Positions 15,626-26,482 of a stretch of DNA of 64,000 nt are shown piece after piece. A model generated the notes under the pieces. The model was not told where the DNA came from. It did not search any database and saw nothing but the letters and a program-made list of their open reading frames with translations. The translations under genes and the position numbers were made by a program. The stretch covers positions 1,274-65,273 of the forward strand of contig JAJYJJ010000009.1 of NCBI GenBank assembly GCA_021789595.1, written 5' to 3'. This stretch comes from Nitrospirota bacterium (lineage in GTDB: Bacteria; Nitrospirota; Thermodesulfovibrionia; UBA6902; JAJYJJ01). The stretch's first letter is position 1; the number at the start of each line of letters is the position of its first letter.

Positions 15626-16643
15626 ATCCCCCCTCCCCTTTATCTATGAAACCGATTATATATGGCCTCTCTCCAAGCTCTTTCAGCCTGAAGATGGCTC
15701 TCTCCACATCCTCCTCTGAAAATACCAGGATAAAGCCAATACCCATGTTAAAAACCCTGAACATCTCAGAAGGAGATACATTCCCAAGTTCCTGTATAAC
15801 CGAAAAAACAGGCTGAATCTGCCATGAATCCTTTTTTATAACTGCCTTCAAACCCGACGGCAGTATCCTCGGCAGATTCTCCGTAATCCCTCCGCCAGTA
15901 ATATGGGCCATGCCCTTTATCTTAAAATCCTTAGACATCTCAAGGACGCTTTTTACATATATCCGCGTTGGCCTTATAAGCTCCTCTCCAAGCGTAGTGC
16001 CTAACTCAGGCATAAATCTGTCTATGCTGTATCCCTTTTCATCAAAGAACAATCTCCTTACAAGGGAAAATCCATTACTGTGAAGACCTGAGGATGCAAG
16101 GCCGACCAGGACATCGCCTGCCTTTATACCCGAACCATCTATTACCCTATCCTCATCAACAATACCAACTGCAAAGCCAGAAAGGTCGTATTCCCCTTCC
16201 CCATAGAAATCAGGCATCTCCGCTGTCTCGCCTCCTATGAGGGAACATCCTGCCTCACTGCACCCATTGCATATGCCCCTGACAACCTCAGCGGCCTTTT
16301 CTGGTCTGAGCCTTCCTATGGCAAAATAATCAAGGAAAAAAAGGGGCTCTGCGCCAGATGTCAGTATATCATTTACGCACATAGCAACAAGATCAATGCC
16401 AACCGTGTCATGTCTATCCATCATAAATGCAATCTTTAATTTCGTCCCAACGCCGTCTGTGCCGCTGACAAGTATAGGGTTTTTGTATCGCTCTATATCA
16501 GGCTTAAACAGTGCACCAAAGCCGCCTATATCAGTGACCACCTCTTTTCTGAAGGTGGCCTTTACAAATGGCGATATGATACCCACAAACCTGTTGCCGG
16601 CATCGATATCAACCCCTGCCTTTTTATAAGTGAGATCTCCCAT
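15612..16643 (-). CDS. purM: phosphoribosylformylglycinamidine cyclo-ligase
   Basis: 343 aa 'YKKAGVDIDAGNRFV...DIGGFGALF...SGTDGVGTKLKIA' is classic AIR synthetase. Confidence 0.9.
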   Translation of the reverse strand: MGDLTYKKAGVDIDAGNRFVGIISPFVKATFRKEVVTDIGGFGALFKPDIERYKNPILVSGTDGVGTKLKIAFMMDRHDTVGIDLVAMCVNDILTSGAEPLFFLDYFAIGRLRPEKAAEVVRGICNGCSEAGCSLIGGETAEMPDFYGEGEYDLSGFAVGIVDEDRVIDGSGIKAGDVLVGLASSGLHSNGFSLVRRLFFDEKGYSIDRFMPELGTTLGEELIRPTRIYVKSVLEMSKDFKIKGMAHITGGGITENLPRILPSGLKAVIKKDSWQIQPVFSVIQELGNVSPSEMFRVFNMGIGFILVFSEEDVERAIFRLKELGERPYIIGFIDKGEGGCVYV

Positions 16644-17025
16644 AATGAGGCTTTAGATTTAAAAGTTATAACATAAAAAAAATATTATTTCCACCCCAAC
16701 ACCTTGGGCTTGACCCCTACTTCGGCTCCTTCGTACAGGGATAAGGATTTGTGACGGAGAGATTTTTCAACATCTATTATTGGAATAGCAGGTCTTAATG
16801 CACAAATTTATGTGCACTGAGATTGTGGCTATTGGAAAACATCTCTTAGCCATACCCTGATATCAAAGAGATTATTGCACAAAAAAATATGCAATGAGGC
16901 CTTTTAAAAGCATCCAGAATTATAACAAAACCACTATATTTCAATGAGTTATGAATCTGGAATCTTGCTTGCAAGGAGAAAAGACAGCAATCTCTGAGGT
17001 CTAATCAGAAAAGGAGGCTACAGAA

Positions 17026-17628
17026 ATGTTGGAAAACAATGCCATATCACCCGATAAGACGATTAGAGGTGTTATTACGCCTGATAAACGGCTCTTTGAC
17101 TTACTCCATAATTCTAAATCGCTTGTTAAAAACAAGAGGATTATAACACCACGGTTGAACATGCAAGATGGCCTTCTGACAGACAGAAGAGTAATCTTTA
17201 CTTCGACCGTAGTCAATAGGGGGATAGACGATGTCTATCAGATCATAAAAGATGTTGAAGGATTCCCAAAATTTATGAAATGGGTCAAGGCCATTATTAT
17301 CCATGAGAGGGAAAACCACAGGGCAATAAGTGAATGGCTTGTTGATTTCGAGGATGCATATTTAGCATGGAAACAAGAAGAAATATATGATGACAGCAGG
17401 GAAAAAATCAGCTTTAACATGCTCAACGGTGACTTTGATGGTTATTGTGGGGAATGGAATCTATCTGAGATGGGAAATAACAAAACCCTTATAACCCTAA
17501 AGGCAAAGTTTGATTGGGGGATGCCCAACATCGAGGTCCTGATGGGACACATACTGAGGAGAAAGGCAAGATATGCTATGAGGACAATGCTCTTAGCAAT
17601 AAAGAAGGAGGTAGGGAATGTTGAGTGA
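17026..17628 (+). CDS. SRPBCC (START/Bet v1/polyketide-cyclase-like) lipid- or ligand-binding domain protein
   Basis: 200 aa. The C-terminal 150 aa has the pattern of cyclase/dehydrase-family proteins ('VVNRGIDDVYQIIKDVEGFPKFMKWVKAI...'). Its stop overlaps the downstream reductase gene. Confidence 0.45.
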   Translation: MLENNAISPDKTIRGVITPDKRLFDLLHNSKSLVKNKRIITPRLNMQDGLLTDRRVIFTSTVVNRGIDDVYQIIKDVEGFPKFMKWVKAIIIHERENHRAISEWLVDFEDAYLAWKQEEIYDDSREKISFNMLNGDFDGYCGEWNLSEMGNNKTLITLKAKFDWGMPNIEVLMGHILRRKARYAMRTMLLAIKKEVGNVE

Positions 17629-18715
17629 GTTCGCCTTTGTGATCCATGCAACCGACTTAAAACTGATGAGTATTGCGTTCGATGAACCAGGGATTATTAA
17701 AAAGAACAGGAGTCTTGTTGAGAAGGCCTTCTCATGGTTCCCTCCATTTAAATGTGCCCATATAGAAGGACTTAGATCGAGAACTGGCAAAACGAGCGAA
17801 GGAGATCTAATCTTCTGCACACTGACACCCGAGCAATTTCTGACAATGGAACCTGATTTTTTGCTTAATCGGATTGTGGAGGCCGGCAGATTGGCTATAG
17901 ACCTTGGAGCAAAGATTCTTGGGCTTGGTGCATATACAGCCTTTGTTGGAAGAAAAGGACTACAGGTAGCAAAGGCACTCGACATGCCAGTTACAACAGG
18001 CAGCAGTTATACGGCTGCAACTGCTGTGGAGGCAACCTTAAAGGCAGCTGTAGATACAGGGATGAGTCTCGATGAAATTAGAGCCTCAGTTGTGGGAGCA
18101 ACCGGGACAATAGGGAGTATATGTTCTCAACTTATTTCAAAAAAAATTCGAGCGATAAACCTTGTTGCGCGGAATCTACCGAGGTTAGAAAATCTATCCA
18201 AGAGAATTAAGGGGAAAAATGAAACGGCAAAGATAATTATCTCTACAGATATAAATTCAATCTCAGAAAGCGATATAGTTGTTTGTGTGACAAATGATCC
18301 TTCTGCCATTATAGATATCAATACCTTGAAATCAGGATCTGTGGTTTGTGATATTTCGATACCAAAGAATATCTCTGAAGAAAATGCCGCAGCAAGGAAA
18401 GACATCCTTGTGATAGATGGCGGCATCGTCAAGCTTCCTGGGGATGTAGAATTCAATTTCTATTTTGGCCTTCCACACAGTCATGCATATGCCTGTATGG
18501 CAGAGACCATGATTCTTGCCCTGGAAGAGCGATATGAATCTTACTCTATAGGTGGTAATATAACTATAGAAAAAGTCGAGGAGATAACCAGGCTTGCCTC
18601 AAAGCACGGATTCAGACTTGCAGAGCTAAAGAGCTTTGGCGTTGCAGTATCGGAAGAGAGGATGGAAAGCTTTAAATATTATTCAAGAGCAAAGGCAATA
18701 TGTGGTAGAATCTAA
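17618..18715 (+). CDS. acyl-ACP reductase-like NAD(P)-dependent oxidoreductase (cyanobacterial AAR family-like)
   Basis: 365 aa with Rossmann motif 'VVGATGTIGSICSQ'. C-terminal 'YACMAETMILALEERYESYSIGGNITIEKVEEITRLASKHGFRL' closely parallels the AAR C-terminus as I recall it ('FACFAESMLLEFE...GRNQITVDKMEQIG...KHGFRP'). Confidence 0.5.
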   Translation: MLSEFAFVIHATDLKLMSIAFDEPGIIKKNRSLVEKAFSWFPPFKCAHIEGLRSRTGKTSEGDLIFCTLTPEQFLTMEPDFLLNRIVEAGRLAIDLGAKILGLGAYTAFVGRKGLQVAKALDMPVTTGSSYTAATAVEATLKAAVDTGMSLDEIRASVVGATGTIGSICSQLISKKIRAINLVARNLPRLENLSKRIKGKNETAKIIISTDINSISESDIVVCVTNDPSAIIDINTLKSGSVVCDISIPKNISEENAAARKDILVIDGGIVKLPGDVEFNFYFGLPHSHAYACMAETMILALEERYESYSIGGNITIEKVEEITRLASKHGFRLAELKSFGVAVSEERMESFKYYSRAKAICGRI

Positions 18716-18718
18716 CCG

Positions 18719-20797
18719 ATGAATATCCATTCGATAGCATCACTTATAGCCTTCTTAGTGTGCACATCGCTGTCTGCCTTTGTATTTTTTAGAGGTAGGA
18801 GAAGCAATGTACACAATGGATTTATCATAGTTACTCAGCTGACAGGTATATGGTCTCTTTTCCCATTTCTGATACTTAACAATCTTATCCCTGTAAAGCA
18901 AATCCTTCTGGTGAGGGCTGTTTATTTAGCCGCCATATTCGACCCGACAGCCTTTCTTTATTTTTCCTTTGCCCTTGTTGGCATTGAGAACAAGAGGAGG
19001 CCCATTATAATGTTATCTTTACTTATATCATTGATACTGTCAGTATTTGGTTTTAGCCCATTATTTATAAAAGATATCGTTAGGTCGGGGAATCTTGCGT
19101 CCATTACGGTAGGGCCTTTGTACCATCTCTATATGCTTTTCTTTGTGTCTGTCTGCCTCTACACATTTTATAACTTTCTGAGTGCATATAAGGTCTCATA
19201 TGGAATATTAAGAAACCAGTTGGAATATGTATTTATAGGGTTTGGGATTGCTTATATTGGCGGATTGATGCATCTCGCAAATATATATTTTAAATATGAG
19301 CCATTTCCCCATGATTTCCTGATCATTCTTTTTGTTCTAATCATCTATTATGCAATCGTCAAATATCGTCTCATGGACATCGATATAGTCTTCAAAAAAG
19401 GTATCACTTATACAACACTGATAACCCTGACACTGCTTCCGGGTTTTGCCATCATCCTGCTCGCCGAGGACATCTTCTTTGGCCAAATAAATTACCCATT
19501 TTCCATTCTTATTCTCCTTGGACTTATAAGCGGAGCCTTTGCCTTTTATGCCATGCGGTTGAAGACTGAACGGGCTGTTGAAAAGAGGATATTCTCGAAG
19601 AAATATCGCTATCATGAAACCATAATGAGTTTCAGCAAGGATATTATCTCTATCCTCGACCTTGATGAACTTTTAAAGAGTCTTGATGCTGTGCTGACAA
19701 AGTCGCTTGACACAAGCGAGCTGTCAGTATTCTTGATAAAGGAGGGGAAAGACACCTATGGTCTTGCCCATTCAAGCGCCAAAAGGGATGAGCCAGCCAT
19801 TGTAGGGGATTTAGAAGACATGGGAAGGATATGGTTGAAGGAAGAGCTCACATGGAAAGAAGCCAACATAAAAAGGTTAATGGGCATGATTAATGCGGAA
19901 GTCTTCATACCGCTGAGGTGCAAGGGAAAGGCTATAGGATTTCTTACCCTCGGAGAAAAAAACAACGGTGGGTTTTATTCCTATGAGGAATTAAATATCC
20001 TATCCGCCCTTTCCAATCAGGCAGCCGTTGCCATTGACAATGCAAGGCTTATTAAGGAGCTTGACCGTTCAAAGGACCTCCTGCGCCGTTCAGAACAACT
20101 ATCCCTTATAGGAAATCTTGCAGTAAGAATAGCGCATGAGATAAGAAATCCGCTTGTAGCCATCGGGACATTCATCCAGATGTTGCCATATAAATACAGC
20201 GATCCTGAGTTCAGGGAGAATTTCTATAACATAGCGCTTGAGGAGGTTAACAGGATTAACGACCTCATAACCGAAATGCTCGACCTCACCAAAAATAAGG
20301 TGTCAAGGTTTCAGTCTGAAAATATACACAGGATTATTGAGAAGATGCTCCTGCTTGCATCCCCAAAGGCAAAAGAAAAGGGGATCAGTATCATCAAAAA
20401 ATACGACACGAGTATTCCAAATGTAATGCTAGATGTTGAAAAAATCAAACAGGTATTCCTCAACCTATTTTACAATGCTATTGAATTTAACAGGGAAGGC
20501 GGACAGATAGCGGTGGTTACAAGGCTCATAGATTCTAACAATAACCATTCGGTCCTGAGGGTTGATGTAAAAGATACAGGTATTGGAATACCTGCGGAAA
20601 ACATAGAGAGGATATTCGACCCTTATTTCACGACAAAACATAAAAGTCCTCTTTTTAAAGGTACAGGGCTCGGCCTGTTTATTTCTAATCAGTATATACT
20701 TGAACACATGGGATGGATTCAGGTAGAAAGCACAATAGATAAAGGTACCACATTTGCAGTGCATTTCCCTATAGAAAAAGGAAATGTGGGGGCTTGA
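18719..20797 (+). CDS. sensor histidine kinase (N-terminal ~7TM domain, GAF, HisKA, HATPase_c), no adjacent response regulator
   Basis: 692 aa with multiple N-terminal TM helices, GAF region 'IPLRCKGKAIGFLTLGEKNNGGFYSYEE', H-box 'HEIRNPL' and ATPase motifs 'DTGIGIP...GTGLGL'. Confidence 0.8.
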   Translation: MNIHSIASLIAFLVCTSLSAFVFFRGRRSNVHNGFIIVTQLTGIWSLFPFLILNNLIPVKQILLVRAVYLAAIFDPTAFLYFSFALVGIENKRRPIIMLSLLISLILSVFGFSPLFIKDIVRSGNLASITVGPLYHLYMLFFVSVCLYTFYNFLSAYKVSYGILRNQLEYVFIGFGIAYIGGLMHLANIYFKYEPFPHDFLIILFVLIIYYAIVKYRLMDIDIVFKKGITYTTLITLTLLPGFAIILLAEDIFFGQINYPFSILILLGLISGAFAFYAMRLKTERAVEKRIFSKKYRYHETIMSFSKDIISILDLDELLKSLDAVLTKSLDTSELSVFLIKEGKDTYGLAHSSAKRDEPAIVGDLEDMGRIWLKEELTWKEANIKRLMGMINAEVFIPLRCKGKAIGFLTLGEKNNGGFYSYEELNILSALSNQAAVAIDNARLIKELDRSKDLLRRSEQLSLIGNLAVRIAHEIRNPLVAIGTFIQMLPYKYSDPEFRENFYNIALEEVNRINDLITEMLDLTKNKVSRFQSENIHRIIEKMLLLASPKAKEKGISIIKKYDTSIPNVMLDVEKIKQVFLNLFYNAIEFNREGGQIAVVTRLIDSNNNHSVLRVDVKDTGIGIPAENIERIFDPYFTTKHKSPLFKGTGLGLFISNQYILEHMGWIQVESTIDKGTTFAVHFPIEKGNVGA

Positions 20798-20844: not shown

Positions 20845-21111
20845 ATGTTCAGGCTGAAACTTATAATCTTTATACTGCTTGTGTTTCTGCTCTTTATATT
20901 TCCTGTCGGCTTTCTTTTTGCTGACAGAACTGGCGATATTATAGCTGCAGGGACAGCAGGCTATGTCCTTGGATGTGCCAGTGCCCCTCATTATTATGAC
21001 TATTACCCTGCGCCTTACTACTATGTCCCCCCTCCCCCACCTCCTGGTTACTATTACTATTATGCGCCGCCACCAGTGCCGCCACCTGGCATATATTATT
21101 ACGGTTATTAG
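20845..21111 (+). CDS. small membrane/secreted protein with Tyr/Pro-rich C-terminal tail
   Basis: 88 aa. Hydrophobic N-terminus 'LKLIIFILLVFLLFIFPVGFLFA', then 'HYYDYYPAPYYYVPPPPPPGYYYYYAPPPVPPPGIYYYGY'. The antisense ORF 20719..21117 has no such features. Confidence 0.35.
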   Translation: MFRLKLIIFILLVFLLFIFPVGFLFADRTGDIIAAGTAGYVLGCASAPHYYDYYPAPYYYVPPPPPPGYYYYYAPPPVPPPGIYYYGY

Positions 21112-21176: not shown

Positions 21177-22022
21177 ATGGTTATGTTGAACCTTGATTTA
21201 AAGCCTGAGGATTTTACCATTCCTCCCCATGACAACATGGAAGACTTTCACGGTGACTTAAATAATCCTGACATAGTTATTTTCCTTAACGGCAACCAGT
21301 GGATGATAATGAAAGAGTTGCTTGCCGCTTTTCAGCAGGAACATCCAGAAATCAAGAATATCTTTTATGAGACTATCCCGCCTGGAATACTCTTAAAGCA
21401 GATTCGTCACGGCGCCCTGAAGGTTGGGGAGCTGGTTATCAGTGTGCCGCCTGATATCTATACAGCAGGCAGAGAGGAGATGGACTCTCTGTTAAACGAT
21501 GGCTTTATCAAAGAGTATGTTCCTTACGCGAAAAACCATCTGGCTATCATGGTGCCCGAAGGGAACCCGAAGGAGATCACGGGCTGGCGCGATTTAGGGC
21601 GTCCGGGAATCCGGGTGGTTATGCCCAATCCGGTAACGGAAGGTGTCGGTCGTCTGGCACTCAAGGCCATGGAAAAAGCAGAAGGACGTGAACTTGTGGA
21701 GACCGTTATGGGGGAAAAGTTGACCGATGGAGAGACCTTCCTTACCCATATCCACCATCGCCAGACTCTCCTTCTTCTCATGGATGGAACGGCAGATGCC
21801 GGGCCGGTATGGATCAGCGAAGCGCTTTATCAAAAGAGGATAGGAAGCCCTCTGGACTATGTGCCCATCCCGGAAGGACAGAATCAGAGCGGCACATATT
21901 TCATCGCCATCGTAGAGAAGACCGTGCAGCACAGGGTCGCGGCAGAGGCATTTCTTGACTTCATGAGGAGCAGGCAGGCTCAGGATATATATGCCGGCTA
22001 CGGCTTTAGCAGCGCGAATTAA
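21177..22022 (+). CDS. ModA/WtpA-like periplasmic-binding-fold protein (molybdate/tungstate type) lacking a signal peptide
   Basis: 281 aa resembling the ModA N-lobe ('IVIFLNGNQWMIMKELLAAFQQ...ETIPPGILLKQIRHGA'). No N-terminal signal peptide. GC content is locally high. Confidence 0.45.
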   Translation: MVMLNLDLKPEDFTIPPHDNMEDFHGDLNNPDIVIFLNGNQWMIMKELLAAFQQEHPEIKNIFYETIPPGILLKQIRHGALKVGELVISVPPDIYTAGREEMDSLLNDGFIKEYVPYAKNHLAIMVPEGNPKEITGWRDLGRPGIRVVMPNPVTEGVGRLALKAMEKAEGRELVETVMGEKLTDGETFLTHIHHRQTLLLLMDGTADAGPVWISEALYQKRIGSPLDYVPIPEGQNQSGTYFIAIVEKTVQHRVAAEAFLDFMRSRQAQDIYAGYGFSSAN

Positions 22023-22101: not shown

Positions 22102-22335
22102 ATGAGACCCGATTCACCGTTTTATTTACGGAGTTTTGAAGTGCTTAAAAAATCAGCTTTATTCTCAAGACTCGATGAGGATGTCCTCAAGGAAATGTTT
22201 CTGATTTTCAGGCATCAAGAATGGGAGAAAAAACAGGTTGTTATGGAGCCCGCTCAAACAGTCGAGCAGGGGTTATTTAGAGATCAAAGACCTGCATGCC
22301 CTGATAAGAAAAATAGAAGAACACCTGCATTTTAA
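22102..22335 (+). pseudogene. Crp/Fnr-family cNMP-binding domain fragment (N-terminal ~45 aa only)
   Basis: 'LRSFEVLKKSALFSRLDEDVLKEMFLIFRHQEWEKKQVV' is a typical Crp effector-domain start. The rest of the ORF is unrelated read-through with no HTH. Confidence 0.4.
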
Positions 22336-22600: not shown

Positions 22601-22653
22601 AATAGAGTAAGCAGCAGGTGTCTCAGATGTTAATTCAACCCAAGGAGGAAGCT

Positions 22654-22992
22654 ATGTTCAAGAAAATCGTAGTAGTTGGAATTGCCGTGCTCATGGTTAG
22701 CGGTGCAGCGTTTGCTGCGGACAAGAGTAACAAGATCGCCAAGAGTGACAAGAAGACCCAACATCATCTTTCGAAGATGAAATGCGAAGATTTTCTCATG
22801 CTTGATGAGACGATCAGGCCCAAAGTCGTTTATTATGGGGTCGCATACGCACGCGGCGGCAAGCCGGAAGGCGCCGTGATCGACATCGAAAGAACAGAAA
22901 AGATCACGCCTATAATCGTTGATGAATGCAAGAAAGAGCCAAAAGCGTCCTTCTGGCAGAAACTCAAGGCGGAAGTCAAGAAAATCTTCTAA
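22654..22992 (+). CDS. HdeA/HdeB-family periplasmic acid-stress chaperone
   Basis: Signal peptide 'MFKKIVVVGIAVLMVSGAAFA'. 'CEDFLMLDETIRPKVVYYGVAYARGGKPEGAVIDIERTEKITPIIVDEC' matches the E. coli HdeA core ('CEDFLAVDESFQPTAV...KPEDAVLDV...VTPAIVQAC') including both Cys. The ATG at 22654 is preceded by AAGGAGG. Confidence 0.6.
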   Translation: MFKKIVVVGIAVLMVSGAAFAADKSNKIAKSDKKTQHHLSKMKCEDFLMLDETIRPKVVYYGVAYARGGKPEGAVIDIERTEKITPIIVDECKKEPKASFWQKLKAEVKKIF

Positions 22993-23026
22993 ACTCTCAA
23001 TGTAAAGAAAAAAAGGAGCACACCCT

Positions 23027-23518
23027 ATGAAACCATATCAACTGATTGCGGCCAGCGCGCTGGCACTTATGGTCCTGGCCGGTTGCACCACCACCGGCAT
23101 GGGGCGCGGAGAAATGACCGACAAAGGAAAACCCACCGAGCCCGTTCTGTTCAGTTGGAAAAGCACGGACGGGGGGCTGTCCGGCTCGATGGTGGCCACA
23201 CTGCCCGACGCGACCTACACAGGTAAGTTCTTTCAGATTACCCGTCAGACGCAGCGCGAAACCCTTGCTCCGCTGTGGAACGGCTGGAACGCAGGATGGT
23301 ACGACTGGCCGTACTGGAGCCAGCCTTATCCGGCCACGTACGATGCGACGCAGTTCATTACGTACTACAGCGGCAAAGTGGTTGCCAATCTTGAAACCAA
23401 CGGCGGCCAGCGCATGCGCTGCCGCTTCCATCTTGCCAATCCGACAAGCGGTATGGCTGATGGCGGCCAAGGCGAGTGTCAACTCTCCGGCGGTCGAATC
23501 ATTAACGCAACATTTTAA
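23027..23518 (+). CDS. lipoprotein of unknown function (Trp/Tyr-rich)
   Basis: Lipobox 'LAGC' after a signal peptide. 163 aa in GC-rich DNA. No recognisable domain. Confidence 0.5.
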   Translation: MKPYQLIAASALALMVLAGCTTTGMGRGEMTDKGKPTEPVLFSWKSTDGGLSGSMVATLPDATYTGKFFQITRQTQRETLAPLWNGWNAGWYDWPYWSQPYPATYDATQFITYYSGKVVANLETNGGQRMRCRFHLANPTSGMADGGQGECQLSGGRIINATF

Positions 23519-23628
23519 TCCTTAATTGATAACAAGAAAGAAGGAGGTGGTCAACGACGACGTAGTCAATCGACATATAGTCACGCCATAAATAATAGCA
23601 GTAAAATCACAAAAAAAGGAGGTACACT

Positions 23629-24144
23629 ATGTCAGAGAAAAATTTGGCTGTAGCTATTTTCAACACCCACACTGAGGCTGAGGATGCTGTCAAGGAACTC
23701 CAGAAATCCGGCTTCGATATGAAGAAGCTGTCCATCGTAGGCAAGGACTATCATTCTGAAGAGCATGTGGTAGGCTATTACAATACGGGTGACCGTGTCA
23801 AATACTGGGGAAAGTTGGGGGCCTTCTGGGGTGGATTATGGGGATTCCTTTTCGGTTCCGCGTTCTTTTTCATTCCCGGGATTGGCCCCATCGTTGTAGG
23901 CGGTCCGTTGGTGTCGTGGATCATTGGCGCGCTTGAAGGTGCCGCTATTGTGGGTGGAATGAGCGCCGTTGGAGCAGCGTTATACGGTATCGGCATTCCA
24001 AAAGACAGCGTCCTCAAATATGAGACTTCTCTGAAGGCGAACAAGTTCCTGTTGGTTGCGCACGGGACGGGGGAAGAAGCGGAAAAGGCAAAAAAGATTT
24101 TAGAGACGACTAATGCAGTTGAGACAGCAATTCATCACGCTTAA
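23629..24144 (+). CDS. general-stress-protein 17M (YflT)-like N-domain fused to a glycine-zipper membrane hairpin
   Basis: 171 aa. N-terminal 'LAVAIFNTHTEAEDAVKELQKSGFDMKKLSIVGKD', then 'GAFWGGLWGFLFGSAFFFIPGIGPIVVGGPLVSWIIGALEGAAIVGG'. Confidence 0.45.
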   Translation: MSEKNLAVAIFNTHTEAEDAVKELQKSGFDMKKLSIVGKDYHSEEHVVGYYNTGDRVKYWGKLGAFWGGLWGFLFGSAFFFIPGIGPIVVGGPLVSWIIGALEGAAIVGGMSAVGAALYGIGIPKDSVLKYETSLKANKFLLVAHGTGEEAEKAKKILETTNAVETAIHHA

Positions 24145-24159
24145 AAACGGAGGTATTGA

Positions 24160-24193
24160 AATACGAACAGGCTGTTTAAAAACCCTGTTGTGT
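24160..24193. promoter_or_regulatory. perfect 12-bp inverted repeat gtgtcattgcga-N10-tcgcaatgacac between the stress gene and the cytochrome operon
   Basis: Seen directly in sequence. No downstream U-tract, so it is either an operator or an RNA hairpin. Confidence 0.35.
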
Positions 24194-24242
24194 CATTGCG
24201 AGGAGCAATTTTCGCAATGACACAATCTATGAGGAGAACATT

Positions 24243-25118
24243 ATGGAAAAAAATAAGGTTATATTTGCCCTTGGGATAATTATCATTTTTGCCATTGTAG
24301 GCGCCGGCATCTCCATCGTATTCGGCAGATTTGTCAGCTTCAGCAACATCTCCAGCGTTGTTGCGGCCTCGGAAAAAACCGATGTAGCCGTACAGACGGG
24401 TATGGCAATCACAGATGCAGGCGGCGCAATCGCCTTTAACCCGCCCTCTGTCCAGGATGCGCCGGCAAACATAAAGGACGCGGTCATGCTCGGTCACAAC
24501 ATCCTGACGGATACCCGGAAATATGCGGGTCAATACGTTGGGAACAAGCTCGACTGTTCAAACTGTCATTTCAAGGGGGGCATGACCCAAGGCGGGAAAA
24601 ACGGAGGCCTCTCGCTTGTGGGAGTGGGTGCAACCTATCCCCAGTACAAGAAGAGACAGAACTATTCCGTGGACCTCGTGACACGAACAAATGACTGTTT
24701 TGAAAGGAGCATGAACGGCAAACCCTTGCCCGCTGACAGCCGGGAAATGATAGCTATAGTCACATATTATCAGTGGATATCAAAAGGACTGCCCATATAT
24801 GCCGATATCCCCTGGTTGGGGGTGAAACACCTCAAGAGTGGTCATAAGCCGGATGAGGTAAAGGGGAAGCAGGTCTTTGCAGACAAATGCGCCATGTGCC
24901 ACGGCAATAACGGCCAGGGAACCCCGGCGGCGCCGCCTCTGTGGGGAAAGGATTCCTTTAACGATGGCGCGGGTATGCATAAGCTGGAAAACCTTGCAGC
25001 CTTTGCCTATAAAAATATGCCAAGGGGAAATCCTGACCTTACCCCTGAAGATGCCCTGGATGTAGCAGCGTTTGTTACAACCCAGCCAAGACCTCATTTT
25101 GTGCCCAGAAAGGGATAG
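24243..25118 (+). CDS. membrane-anchored dihaem cytochrome c, TsdA/SoxA-like (thiosulfate dehydrogenase family candidate)
   Basis: N-terminal TM anchor and two CxxCH motifs (CSNCH, CAMCH). 'YVGNKLDCSNCH' and a free Cys in 'TNDCFERSMNG' resemble the TsdA haem-1 region with its Cys ligand (recalled from memory). Confidence 0.5.
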   Translation: MEKNKVIFALGIIIIFAIVGAGISIVFGRFVSFSNISSVVAASEKTDVAVQTGMAITDAGGAIAFNPPSVQDAPANIKDAVMLGHNILTDTRKYAGQYVGNKLDCSNCHFKGGMTQGGKNGGLSLVGVGATYPQYKKRQNYSVDLVTRTNDCFERSMNGKPLPADSREMIAIVTYYQWISKGLPIYADIPWLGVKHLKSGHKPDEVKGKQVFADKCAMCHGNNGQGTPAAPPLWGKDSFNDGAGMHKLENLAAFAYKNMPRGNPDLTPEDALDVAAFVTTQPRPHFVPRKG

Positions 25119-25126
25119 GAGGATTT

Positions 25127-26482
25127 ATGCAGTTTCCCATCTTTCAGGTACCGCATTTAGGCAACGGCATGACAATCGCACTGGATGCAGTGCTGCATGT
25201 GATCATAAGCCACGGACTGGCTATCGGCGCAATAACGCTCATCGTAATAAGTGAATACATGGGATTTAAGAAGTCTTCCCAGGACTGGGAAAATTTTGCA
25301 AAGGACTTTCTGAAATTCACCATTATAATCACCACAGGTGTCGGAGCGGTAACGGGAGTCGGCATATGGCTTATTACCAGCGCCCTTTCACCCCTTGGCA
25401 TAGGCTCTATGCTTCGTGTCTTTTTCTGGCCATGGTTTATTGAATGGATGATATTCACCAGTGAGGTGATTTTTCTTCTCCTCTACTACTTTACCTGGGA
25501 TAAATGGACAAGTGAGAGGAAGAAGCAGCATATTTATCTGGGAGCCGGCTATACCATTTTCGCTCTTTCCTCTGCCTTTCTGATTACAGGTATACTGGGT
25601 TTTATGCTTACTTCTGATGGCTGGCCCTGGGATAAAAGTATCTTATCTGCTTTTTTTAATCCAAGTTACCTACCTCAACTGCTATTGAGGATAGGTATTG
25701 CTTTAGCGCTTGGTACCGTATTCTCTGTGGCATTTCTTCTTTTTACCAGAAGGGAAAGTGGCTTCCGCAAAGAAGCCCTGAACTTTTTCGGAAAGGTTGC
25801 CCTGCTTTCATTATCGGCAACGGTTATATTCACCTGGTGGTATTTCAGCGTCGTCCCTTCATCGTTCAAAACCCACGCTAAATTTGCTGCCCTGACTTCC
25901 CACTTTTCCCAGCAACCTGAAATTTTCTGGATTGCGAATATTACCGCTGCTTTCCTGTTGTTCGTGTTAGCCCTGTCTGCCATGAGAGGTTCCACCCTTC
26001 TGGTTAAAATTCTCATTCTCCCTGCAATTTTGATATCCATGGGTTTTGTAAGTGAATTTGAACGTATAAGGGAGTTCATCAGAGGTCCTTACCTCATGCC
26101 GGGTTACATGTATGCTAATCAGGTATTGTTGAAGGAGACCCCCGTATTGGACAAAGAGGGGTTATTGAAGAATGCATACTGGTATAATTCAATCACAAAG
26201 AGACCTGATGTAGTGAATCAGGGCGCATACCTCTTTGCACAGAACTGTTCAGCATGCCATACCATCGGAGGAATTAATGACATTGCAAAGAGGGTGCAGG
26301 GAAGGACAGAGGATGGAATCTTTGTCATCCTCGGCCATACCCATGATATGGTTCCCTTCATGCCTCCTTTTTCAGGGACAGAGCAGGAGCGGAGGGTAAT
26401 GGCAAGCTTTCTCTATAAGCTATCAACGGGAAGGCTCAAAATGGGTGCACCTTCCCGTTTTACACCAGGGAGGTGGGAATGA
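25127..26482 (+). CDS. CydA-like (cytochrome bd subunit I N-terminal half-like) membrane domain fused to a C-terminal monohaem cytochrome c
   Basis: TM1 His 'DAVLHVIISHGLAIG', 'GVGAVTGVGIW' and 'FTSEVIFLLLYYFTWDKW' parallel CydA 'MYHFLFVPLTLG', 'GVATGLTMEF' and 'FLESTFVGLFFFGWDRL'. The C-terminal 'CSACH...MPPF' is a class I cytochrome c domain. Confidence 0.5.
   Translation: MQFPIFQVPHLGNGMTIALDAVLHVIISHGLAIGAITLIVISEYMGFKKSSQDWENFAKDFLKFTIIITTGVGAVTGVGIWLITSALSPLGIGSMLRVFFWPWFIEWMIFTSEVIFLLLYYFTWDKWTSERKKQHIYLGAGYTIFALSSAFLITGILGFMLTSDGWPWDKSILSAFFNPSYLPQLLLRIGIALALGTVFSVAFLLFTRRESGFRKEALNFFGKVALLSLSATVIFTWWYFSVVPSSFKTHAKFAALTSHFSQQPEIFWIANITAAFLLFVLALSAMRGSTLLVKILILPAILISMGFVSEFERIREFIRGPYLMPGYMYANQVLLKETPVLDKEGLLKNAYWYNSITKRPDVVNQGAYLFAQNCSACHTIGGINDIAKRVQGRTEDGIFVILGHTHDMVPFMPPFSGTEQERRVMASFLYKLSTGRLKMGAPSRFTPGRWE

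Follow-up and report, generated by a model that had tools for sequence, protein, structure and literature searches.

A conserved cassette of an acyl-ACP reductase-like enzyme, an SRPBCC protein and a seven-helix sensor kinase in a Nitrospirota bacterium: a possible lipid-aldehyde signalling unit

Several bacterial signalling systems, namely CqsA-CqsS, LqsA-LqsS, PhcB-PhcS and RpfF-RpfC-RpfG, rest on operons in which a polytopic membrane histidine kinase is paired with an enzyme that uses acyl thioesters. A membrane-embedded sensor kinase is likewise encoded beside a lipid-modifying enzyme in the DesK/DesR system of Bacillus subtilis, where the adjoining des desaturase gene is a separately regulated target of the DNA-binding regulator. 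Here, we describe a three-gene cassette at positions 17026-20797 of a 64,000-nucleotide stretch of the Nitrospirota contig JAJYJJ010000009.1 (the window), which encodes an SRPBCC protein, a putative thioester reductase related to AAR, the acyl-ACP reductase of cyanobacteria (ACP standing for acyl carrier protein), as well as a sensor histidine kinase with a seven-helix membrane domain and a GAF domain (7TM-GAF). The reading we favour, a tentative though quite plausible one, is that these genes form one signalling cassette in which the reductase and the SRPBCC protein would produce a hydrophobic aldehyde and present it to the kinase for sensing. Both the enzyme superfamily and the logic of synthase and receptor are already known; the partner set of START and 7TM-GAF proteins and the clade that carries it appear to be undescribed, and no description of an acyl-ACP reductase with an SRPBCC protein, nor of the triad, was found in the literature searched. 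The features discussed below are:

17026-17628, plus strand: SRPBCC gene, 200 aa (from the open reading frame list)
17618-18715, plus strand: reductase gene, 365 aa (from the open reading frame list; more than 3000 homologs)
17993-18001, plus strand: Thr126-Thr127-Gly128 motif of the reductase (PVTTGSSYT), invariant in alignment A1
18095-18115, plus strand: dinucleotide-binding motif G160-A-T-G163-T-I-G166 of the reductase, invariant columns in A1
18494-18496, plus strand: codon of Cys293 of the reductase (YACMAE), invariant in alignments A1 and A2
18719-20797, plus strand: sensor histidine kinase gene, 692 aa (from Pfam)
18719-19363, plus strand: sensor domain of the kinase, predicted to have seven helices in a G-protein-coupled receptor (GPCR)-like topology and, between helices 4 and 5, a loop that forms a beta-hairpin

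A first-pass annotation of the sequence had reported the first two open reading frames and their 11-bp overlap (17618-17628), which the open reading frame list bears out, and had left out the kinase, whose reading frame begins 3 nt past the reductase stop codon. Strong Shine-Dalgarno sites stand before both upstream genes, AAAGGAGG 7 nt 5' of the ATG at 17026 and AAGGAGG 6 nt 5' of the ATG at 17618. A mis-called start was considered for the 200-aa SRPBCC protein, its homologs being about 145-155 aa long, and was rejected; the start at 17026 is kept because of its strong site, because the internal ATG at 17161 has none and because an Elusimicrobiota homolog has 206 aa.

Characterised AAR-type domains carry an acyl group from phosphopantetheine to a cysteine and on to an aldehyde, which goes to a bound or fused partner, in AAR the aldehyde deformylating oxygenase (ADO) and in PigE, TamH and KecF a transaminase (PMC8341465, PMC9594044, PMC6498172). 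The window reductase, which has no extra domain, had been called AAR-like in the first-pass annotation, with a profile search against competing families as the proposed check. In that search the highest NCBIfam score falls to PigE (NF053554, 203.9 bits, positions 46-360 of 837, which is its reductase domain), and the AAR equivalog TIGR04058 is matched at 116.7 bits (E 1.4e-33), short of its cutoff of 449.7, as against 37 bits for glutamyl-tRNA reductase and 23 bits for shikimate dehydrogenase. The highest scores do not fall to the shikimate, saccharopine or glutamyl-tRNA reductase families, as a refutation of the earlier reading would have required. The best sequence matches in the PDB are PigE 4ppm (118.7 bits, residues 52-359), AAR 6jzq (88 bits, E 9e-24) and 9e4x (32 bits), a terminal amidation domain (TAD) of a non-ribosomal peptide synthetase (NRPS). 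The likeness to AAR therefore stands, as do the Rossmann motif (VGATGTIGS) and the motifs quoted earlier (...AYACMAETMILALEERYESYSIGGNITIEKVEEITRLASKHGFRLAEL...), all found in the translation; orthology to AAR does not, because 117 bits is set against a cutoff of 450, and judged by profile score the protein is closer to the PigE reductase domain.

The active site appears to be complete. Throughout alignment A1, which comprises 26 homologs, Cys293, T126-T127-G128, G160/G163/G166 and Arg185 are invariant. In the HMMER alignment to 6jzq, Cys293 pairs with Cys294 of the S. elongatus AAR ('FACFAE'), the acyl-enzyme nucleophile of that protein (PMC9594044; bioRxiv 10.1101/2024.10.28.620694), and in a TAD structure the TTG motif lies against the catalytic cysteine, TTG and Cys together being hallmarks of the active site (bioRxiv 10.1101/2024.10.28.620694). 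Arg185 belongs to a 'VARN' sequence that follows GxGxxG and corresponds to the 'TARN' of the NADPH-using AAR, and by this homology the window enzyme would be expected to prefer NADPH. The alignments show a member of the AAR/PigE thioester-reductase superfamily that is, by prediction, catalytically intact and that belongs to an uncharacterised branch of the aldehyde-forming thioester reductases. For the fold, a natural SRPBCC-reductase fusion of 513 aa that is 47% identical to the window protein (P0091) was modelled with AlphaFold (pLDDT 87.8, pTM 0.83), and the model matches AAR 6jzy (TM 0.80 over the target, E 2.8e-22) and also the TAD domain 9e4u; the N-terminal, Rossmann and C-terminal helical parts of the AAR fold were found in this modelled homolog, not in a model of the window protein itself.

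The window reductase thus shares with AAR (6JZQ/6JZY) the fold, as seen in the modelled homolog, a cysteine in an xACxAE helix, the TTG motif and the GxGxxG and 'ARN' site, and probably also the chemistry that leads from thioester through enzyme thioester to aldehyde. It differs from AAR in being only about 22-25% identical, in its partners, which are an SRPBCC protein and a sensor kinase instead of ADO, and in that reductases of its type occur in lineages without photosynthesis, Omnitrophota and Elusimicrobiota among them. A third AAR-like branch, the TAD of NRPS and polyketide synthase (PKS) assembly lines (9E4S-9E56), has the same invariant Cys and TTG (Foldseek E 2e-19), but it sits at the end of an NRPS module, is NAD-specific through an Asp and has a different proposed chemistry, so that the relationship is a distant one. 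More than 3000 relatives of the reductase are present in a large protein database, the best of them 45-57% identical and many of them single chains of 500-560 aa that join PF03364 to the reductase; they carry the public names 'shikimate dehydrogenase', 'predicted amino acid dehydrogenase' and 'fatty aldehyde-generating acyl-ACP reductase', none of which fits. Indeed, it is very improbable that the window protein is an ordinary shikimate or amino-acid dehydrogenase, or else a genuine cyanobacterial-type AAR for alkane synthesis. Besides the names given to its homologs, Shikimate_DH is its sole significant Pfam match (44 bits), but this covers the Rossmann part alone (residues 150-258), whereas PigE and AAR match over the full length and the catalytic Cys is kept. 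An AAR/ADO alkane pathway was rejected on the TIGR04058 score and on a search for ADO in all six frames of the window, in which one ADO probe sequence found no match (best E 0.95), in keeping with the earlier remark that no ADO lies nearby. No ADO was seen in the related loci looked at, and no ferritin-like protein is found among the annotated neighbours of the operon.

The assignment of the partner to the SRPBCC fold is confirmed by PF03364 (Polyketide_cyc; 57.5 bits, cutoff 23.4), with a signature of the Coq10/RatA type, although the score against the RatA equivalog, 28 bits, is far below its cutoff of 258. The domain spans residues of about 57-195 and follows an N-terminal extension of about 55 aa that is missing in most homologs. 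Conserved across 23 such partners are W104, W115, F130, G135, D136, G142, W164 and P167, and no obvious conserved catalytic residues were found in the domain. The SRPBCC half of the P0091 model matches the START protein 2d4r at a TM of 0.91, a helix-grip fold, and it also matches the polyketide aromatase/cyclases ZhuI, WhiE-VI and TcmN. By analogy with the characterised reductases, the SRPBCC protein may take the place of ADO or the transaminase as aldehyde acceptor, in which case a START-domain carrier would be a fourth hand-off partner of AAR-type reductases, beside ADO, transaminases and NRPS termini, and of interest for aldehyde biocatalysis.

The closest sequence relatives, PigE, TamH and KecF, act in prodigiosin, tambjamine and koreenceine synthesis, and their AAR-type, COG5322-like domains likewise pass an aldehyde to a linked domain. 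That domain is a pyridoxal phosphate-dependent transaminase within a biosynthetic cluster, whereas here the linked domain is a START/SRPBCC pocket; no aminotransferase was found among the annotated neighbours of the operon or in related loci. We consider it unlikely that the cassette releases a specialised-metabolite chain in the manner of these enzymes, with the SRPBCC protein acting like a cyclase/aromatase on the released aldehyde and the kinase as a cluster-situated regulator. The PigE domain is the best family match of the reductase, the polyketide aromatase/cyclases are among the structural matches of its partner, and one related locus (L006) has a further paralog of the reductase as well as a FabA/ApeI-like dehydratase, all of which would fit such a role. 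Against this, the window and most related loci have no PKS, NRPS, dedicated ACP, transaminase or tailoring genes, the SRPBCC protein has a Coq10/RatA-type signature without obvious conserved catalytic residues, and the cassette does not exceed three or four genes.

The cassette is conserved in related loci. Exact-protein look-ups, a genome scan that found relatives in 571 species genomes, and a metagenome scan together gave 173 loci, which were scored with the window's own proteins and split cleanly into two groups. The first, clade A, comprises reductases that score at least 328 bits against the window protein, namely 25 genes in 24 distinct loci, at least seven of them further loci added by the metagenome scan; they come from Omnitrophota, Elusimicrobiota, one metagenome-assembled genome (MAG) labelled Shapirobacteria and metagenomes, and are 38-74% identical in pairs (median 46%). 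Each of the 23 loci with downstream sequence encodes a HisKA_7TM kinase on the strand of the reductase, so that, as a matter of architecture, the putative signal-making enzyme and a polytopic sensor kinase form a conserved unit. The kinase gene abuts or overlaps the reductase gene in 21 of these 23, with an ATGA overlap in nine, and in the remaining two (L011, L171) a single gene for a GMC oxidoreductase lies between them. The SRPBCC protein is encoded in 22 of the 24 loci, being missing from L170 and L093, and in seven it is fused to the reductase through a linker of 2-18 residues. Because of these fusions the link between reductase and SRPBCC protein is taken to be functional, as had been proposed from the window alone, and the survey as a whole shows that the reductase gene is tied to those of an SRPBCC domain and a 7TM-GAF kinase. 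Directly 3' of the kinase, 13 of the 24 loci encode a response regulator that is receiver-only and about 129 aa long. Beyond these three partners no neighbour is conserved in clade A and the rest varies by locus, although signalling-type outputs do occur, as HD-GYP-type HD_5 proteins (L006, L171) and PilZ proteins (L004, L008).

Several clade-A loci elaborate on the basic plan. Duplications are confined to the cassette, in that L172 has two SRPBCC-reductase pairs, and L012 and L173 have two kinases each. A second, divergent reductase paralog of 325-373 aa is present in three loci (L006:6067-7523, L011:4540-5517 and L172:6908-8468), followed by the FabA/ApeI-like dehydratase in L006 and accompanied by its own SRPBCC gene in L172, which suggests diversification within the cassette. 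The inserted GMC-family FAD oxidoreductases are about 433 aa long (L011:7085-8383, L171:10110-11417); the family includes alcohol and aldehyde oxidoreductases, and these members could act on the alcohol or aldehyde product, oxidising or reducing it. One metagenomic locus carries eight tandem single-domain PilZ genes directly 5' of the SRPBCC-reductase-kinase cassette (L008:3230-6945), and in L004 a PilZ-methyltransferase-hydrolase fusion overlaps the start of the fused reductase.

The kinase of the window consists of a HisKA_7TM domain (about 1-215), two further membrane helices (about 221-292), a GAF domain (about 314-441), HisKA (471-525, with His473) and HATPase (572-686), with Pfam scores of 40.6 bits for PF16927 (cutoff 28.6), 45 bits for HisKA and 88 bits for HATPase_c. 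In a structural model the sensor domain forms a seven-helix bundle resembling a GPCR. Kinases linked to the reductase conserve the H, N, G1 and G2 boxes, and the phosphoacceptor candidate His473 is present in the window kinase. Conserved positions of the sensor region are W45, G132, F142, N166, Q167, Y170, Y190, E194 and P197, together with Y211, I213, R217, L218 and D220, which make up a cytoplasmic juxtamembrane motif. A query with the 7TM region alone gave two database matches; relatives were found with the full-length kinase. A rhodopsin-like Schiff base between the aldehyde and a lysine of the 7TM domain was rejected as a mode of sensing, because 24 reductase-linked kinases have no lysine in common in their membrane domains.

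The nearest named kinase is PrsK (TIGR02916), with which the window protein shares an architecture of polytopic N-terminal sensor, GAF, HisKA and HATPase. It scores 106.7 bits over the GAF-kinase part only, against an equivalog cutoff of 300, and related kinases align with PrsK over nearly the full length (156-166 bits), still under the cutoff. The window also differs from the PrsK system in having no PrsR, PrsT, EpsH or PEP-CTERM genes, and no sigma-54 regulator, TPR or exosortase gene was found among the annotated genes around the operon. The stimulus of PrsK, described as obscure since 2006, 'remains obscure' (PMC1569441), and HisKA_7TM is listed among the sensor domains of archaeal two-component systems with no ligand named (PMC5847659).

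The sister group, clade B, comprises 133 distinct loci whose reductases score 292-331 bits, and neither an SRPBCC nor a 7TM kinase partner was found in any of them (Fisher p = 5e-28, not corrected for phylogeny). In Bacillota the clade-B gene lies in a housekeeping neighbourhood with the order birA, coaX, dus, a small helix-turn-helix (HTH)-like protein, a 304-aa protein, the reductase, greA and lysS. The 304-aa protein is always encoded 5' of the reductase, with a start overlap of about 16 bp; it has no Pfam match, is preceded by the HTH-like protein of about 177 aa, and is exemplified by L019:5065-5979, with about 40 other loci among L019-L089. It is a further uncharacterised, tightly coupled partner of the reductase family. 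In 14 Chloroflexota loci (L044:2510-7027, L017, L045, L057, L058, L066, L080, L084-L086, L106, L113, L128 and L139) a REC-GGDEF protein is encoded after the reductase, and beyond it, 0.9-2.2 kb 3' of the reductase, comes a giant soluble hybrid kinase of 1200-2350 aa; that of L044 combines five GAF domains with PAS, HisKA, HATPase and two receivers. Here the reductase family is associated for a second time, and independently, with GAF kinases and outputs of the cyclic di-GMP (c-di-GMP) type. In these Chloroflexota loci a hexapeptide-repeat transferase is often encoded upstream.

Such close coupling could also mean that the reductase and SRPBCC protein are themselves a co-sensor, which would read NAD(P)H/NAD(P)+ or acyl-ACP levels and modulate the kinase by contact, with the aldehyde being incidental. 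Translational coupling and the ATGA overlaps with the kinase gene would fit a stoichiometric complex, the juxtamembrane motif is a possible docking site, and the association with a soluble GAF kinase in Chloroflexota is also in favour. We nevertheless give this only a slim chance: the catalytic residues are all strictly conserved, as expected of a working enzyme, the pocket of the SRPBCC domain points to the handling of a small hydrophobic ligand, and no fusion of reductase and kinase was found among the 120 matches listed for either protein.

A reverse test was made with three kinases, 40%, 34% and 32% identical to that of the window, which have no reductase beside them. In all three cases another acyl-thioester enzyme is encoded directly upstream on the same strand. 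It is a FabF-type ketoacyl synthase in L174 (4607-8058) and L175 (2835-8127), the two synthases being 56% identical, and in L176 (3521-8202) a FeeM/OlsB-like N-acyltransferase, only distantly related to the PEP-CTERM-associated family, whose gene overlaps the kinase start and adjoins those of an ACP and a ketoacyl synthase. The kinases of L174-L176 are followed by sigma-54 activators, with an HD-GYP response regulator in L174, and L175 also encodes an aldehyde:ferredoxin oxidoreductase and a FadL-like porin of the outer membrane.

In the signalling cassette as we envisage it, the cytoplasmic reductase would transfer to Cys293 the acyl chain of a phosphopantetheine thioester (acyl-ACP or acyl-CoA) and reduce the bound acyl group with NAD(P)H to a hydrophobic aldehyde, which would pass directly into the SRPBCC pocket, as relatives of the enzyme pass theirs to ADO or a fused transaminase. 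The aldehyde lipid or a close derivative would then be the cue for the kinase, acting through the GPCR-like membrane domain or the cytoplasmic GAF domain, and the kinase would phosphorylate a receiver-only response regulator encoded elsewhere in this genome; judged from the related loci, the output would probably be c-di-GMP turnover. The cue might be intercellular or might be a readout of the cell's own acyl-ACP and NADPH state. This logic resembles that of CqsA/CqsS, PhcB/PhcS and RpfF/RpfC/RpfG, and the HD-GYP-type outputs of related loci recall RpfG. There is no homology to the synthases or receptors of the CqsA-CqsS, LqsA-LqsS, PhcB-PhcS and RpfF-RpfC systems, in place of which the cassette has a reductase with a carrier domain and a HisKA_7TM-GAF sensor.

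Several points weigh against signalling. The substrate, the product and any binding by the kinase are things we infer; the adjacency of the genes fits a sensor-plus-effector arrangement like des-desKR equally well; the reverse test rests on three cases, in which the ketoacyl synthases beside the kinases exceed the FabF equivalog cutoff and may be the ordinary FabF of fatty-acid synthesis; and membrane-lipid genes occur near some related loci, L171 having those for a CDP-alcohol phosphatidyltransferase and PgpA, and L006 those for a lipid A acyltransferase and a monogalactosyldiacylglycerol (MGDG) synthase. The main rival is a homeostasis unit like DesK/Des, in which the aldehyde or alcohol from the reductase and SRPBCC protein would be built into ether, plasmalogen-like or wax lipids while the kinase senses the membrane's physical or compositional state and adjusts the pathway. 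We think this doubtful, if well worth keeping in view: it is kept alive by those sporadic membrane-lipid genes (CDP-OH_P_transf and PgpA in L171; MGDG_synth, Lip_A_acyltrans and the FabA-like gene in L006; Lip_A_acyltrans in L170) and by the FabF-grade synthases and OlsB/FeeM-like N-acyltransferase beside related kinases, and a multi-helix membrane sensor adjoining a lipid enzyme, as in DesK/DesR, and the GMC oxidoreductases of L011 and L171 would suit it too. In contrast to DesK/DesR, however, the enzyme is encoded 5' of the sensor in the same operon and is translationally coupled, instead of lying in a separate regulated target operon, and the usual regulator (13 of 24 loci) is receiver-only and has no DNA-binding domain. 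Constant company with a kinase would moreover be unusual for a biosynthetic enzyme, and genes for acyltransferases and for enzymes of the alkyl-dihydroxyacetone-phosphate, PlsA/R and wax-synthase types are not conserved with the cassette, none being found in the window.

The signalling reading is preferred over bulk lipid synthesis because the clade-A enzyme is always found with the kinase, is translationally coupled upstream of it and has no conserved lipid-assembly gene beside it. The suggestion in the first-pass annotation that the product serves wax, ether or plasmalogen-type lipids finds no support in a set of conserved partners that is limited to the SRPBCC protein, the 7TM-GAF kinase and the receiver-only regulator, lipid genes being sporadic. 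A bolder generalisation, which we regard as speculative and rather improbable as it stands, is that of a new signalling family in which GPCR-like seven-helix/GAF kinases resembling PrsK read acyl-derived lipids made by the cell itself, the ligand here and in Omnitrophota and Elusimicrobiota being a START-chaperoned fatty aldehyde from a dedicated AAR-type reductase, and relatives using other acyl-ACP enzymes. If this were true, it could amount to a chemically new class of signal, passed between cells or reporting growth state, in phyla that are for the most part uncultured, and if the signalling reading of the cassette is right, lipid-aldehyde signalling would extend to Omnitrophota and Elusimicrobiota, whose sampled representatives are almost all uncultured MAGs. 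As a dedicated kinase partner, the clade-A reductase offers a testable candidate source of a ligand for the HisKA_7TM/PrsK-like sensor domain.

Within the window the cassette is isolated, with no response regulator, ACP, acyl-activating enzyme or ADO, and no further copy of the SRPBCC, reductase or kinase gene was found in its 64 kb. To its 5' side, the opposite strand carries purM (minus strand, ending at 16643), purN and genes for an M23 peptidase and a bactofilin, and the apparent three-gene operon is therefore preceded by an intergenic region:

16644-17025, plus strand: intergenic region of 382 bp between the divergent purM and SRPBCC genes, its 3' end formed by the AAAGGAGG site

This region is presumed to be the promoter and regulatory region of the operon; a promoter and terminator scan of the operon gave sites no more numerous than in shuffled sequence, and no promoter was assigned. 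To the 3' side, 47 nt past the kinase stop codon, lies an 88-aa open reading frame (20845-21111, plus strand) with no Pfam match, which has a hydrophobic N-terminal segment and an extremely Tyr/Pro-rich tail (…HYYDYYPAPYYYVPPPPPPGYYYYYAPPPVPPPGIYYYGY) and is a called gene on Logan contig L001 too. It is followed by a gene for a solute-binding protein (SBP_bac_11, 21177-22022) and, at 22618-26482 on the plus strand, by envelope/stress and respiratory genes for an HdeA-like periplasmic chaperone, a YflT/ActD-like protein and two c-type cytochrome proteins; none of the SBP_bac_11, HdeA-like, YflT/ActD-like and cytochrome genes is common to the related loci. Between them, at 22102-22335 on the plus strand, a 77-aa open reading frame without a Pfam match starts with …LRSFEVLKKSALFSRLDEDVLKEMF…, which we take to recall the beginning of a cyclic nucleotide (cNMP)-binding, Crp-type domain, and stops early; it is perhaps a pseudogene or what is left of a truncated regulator.

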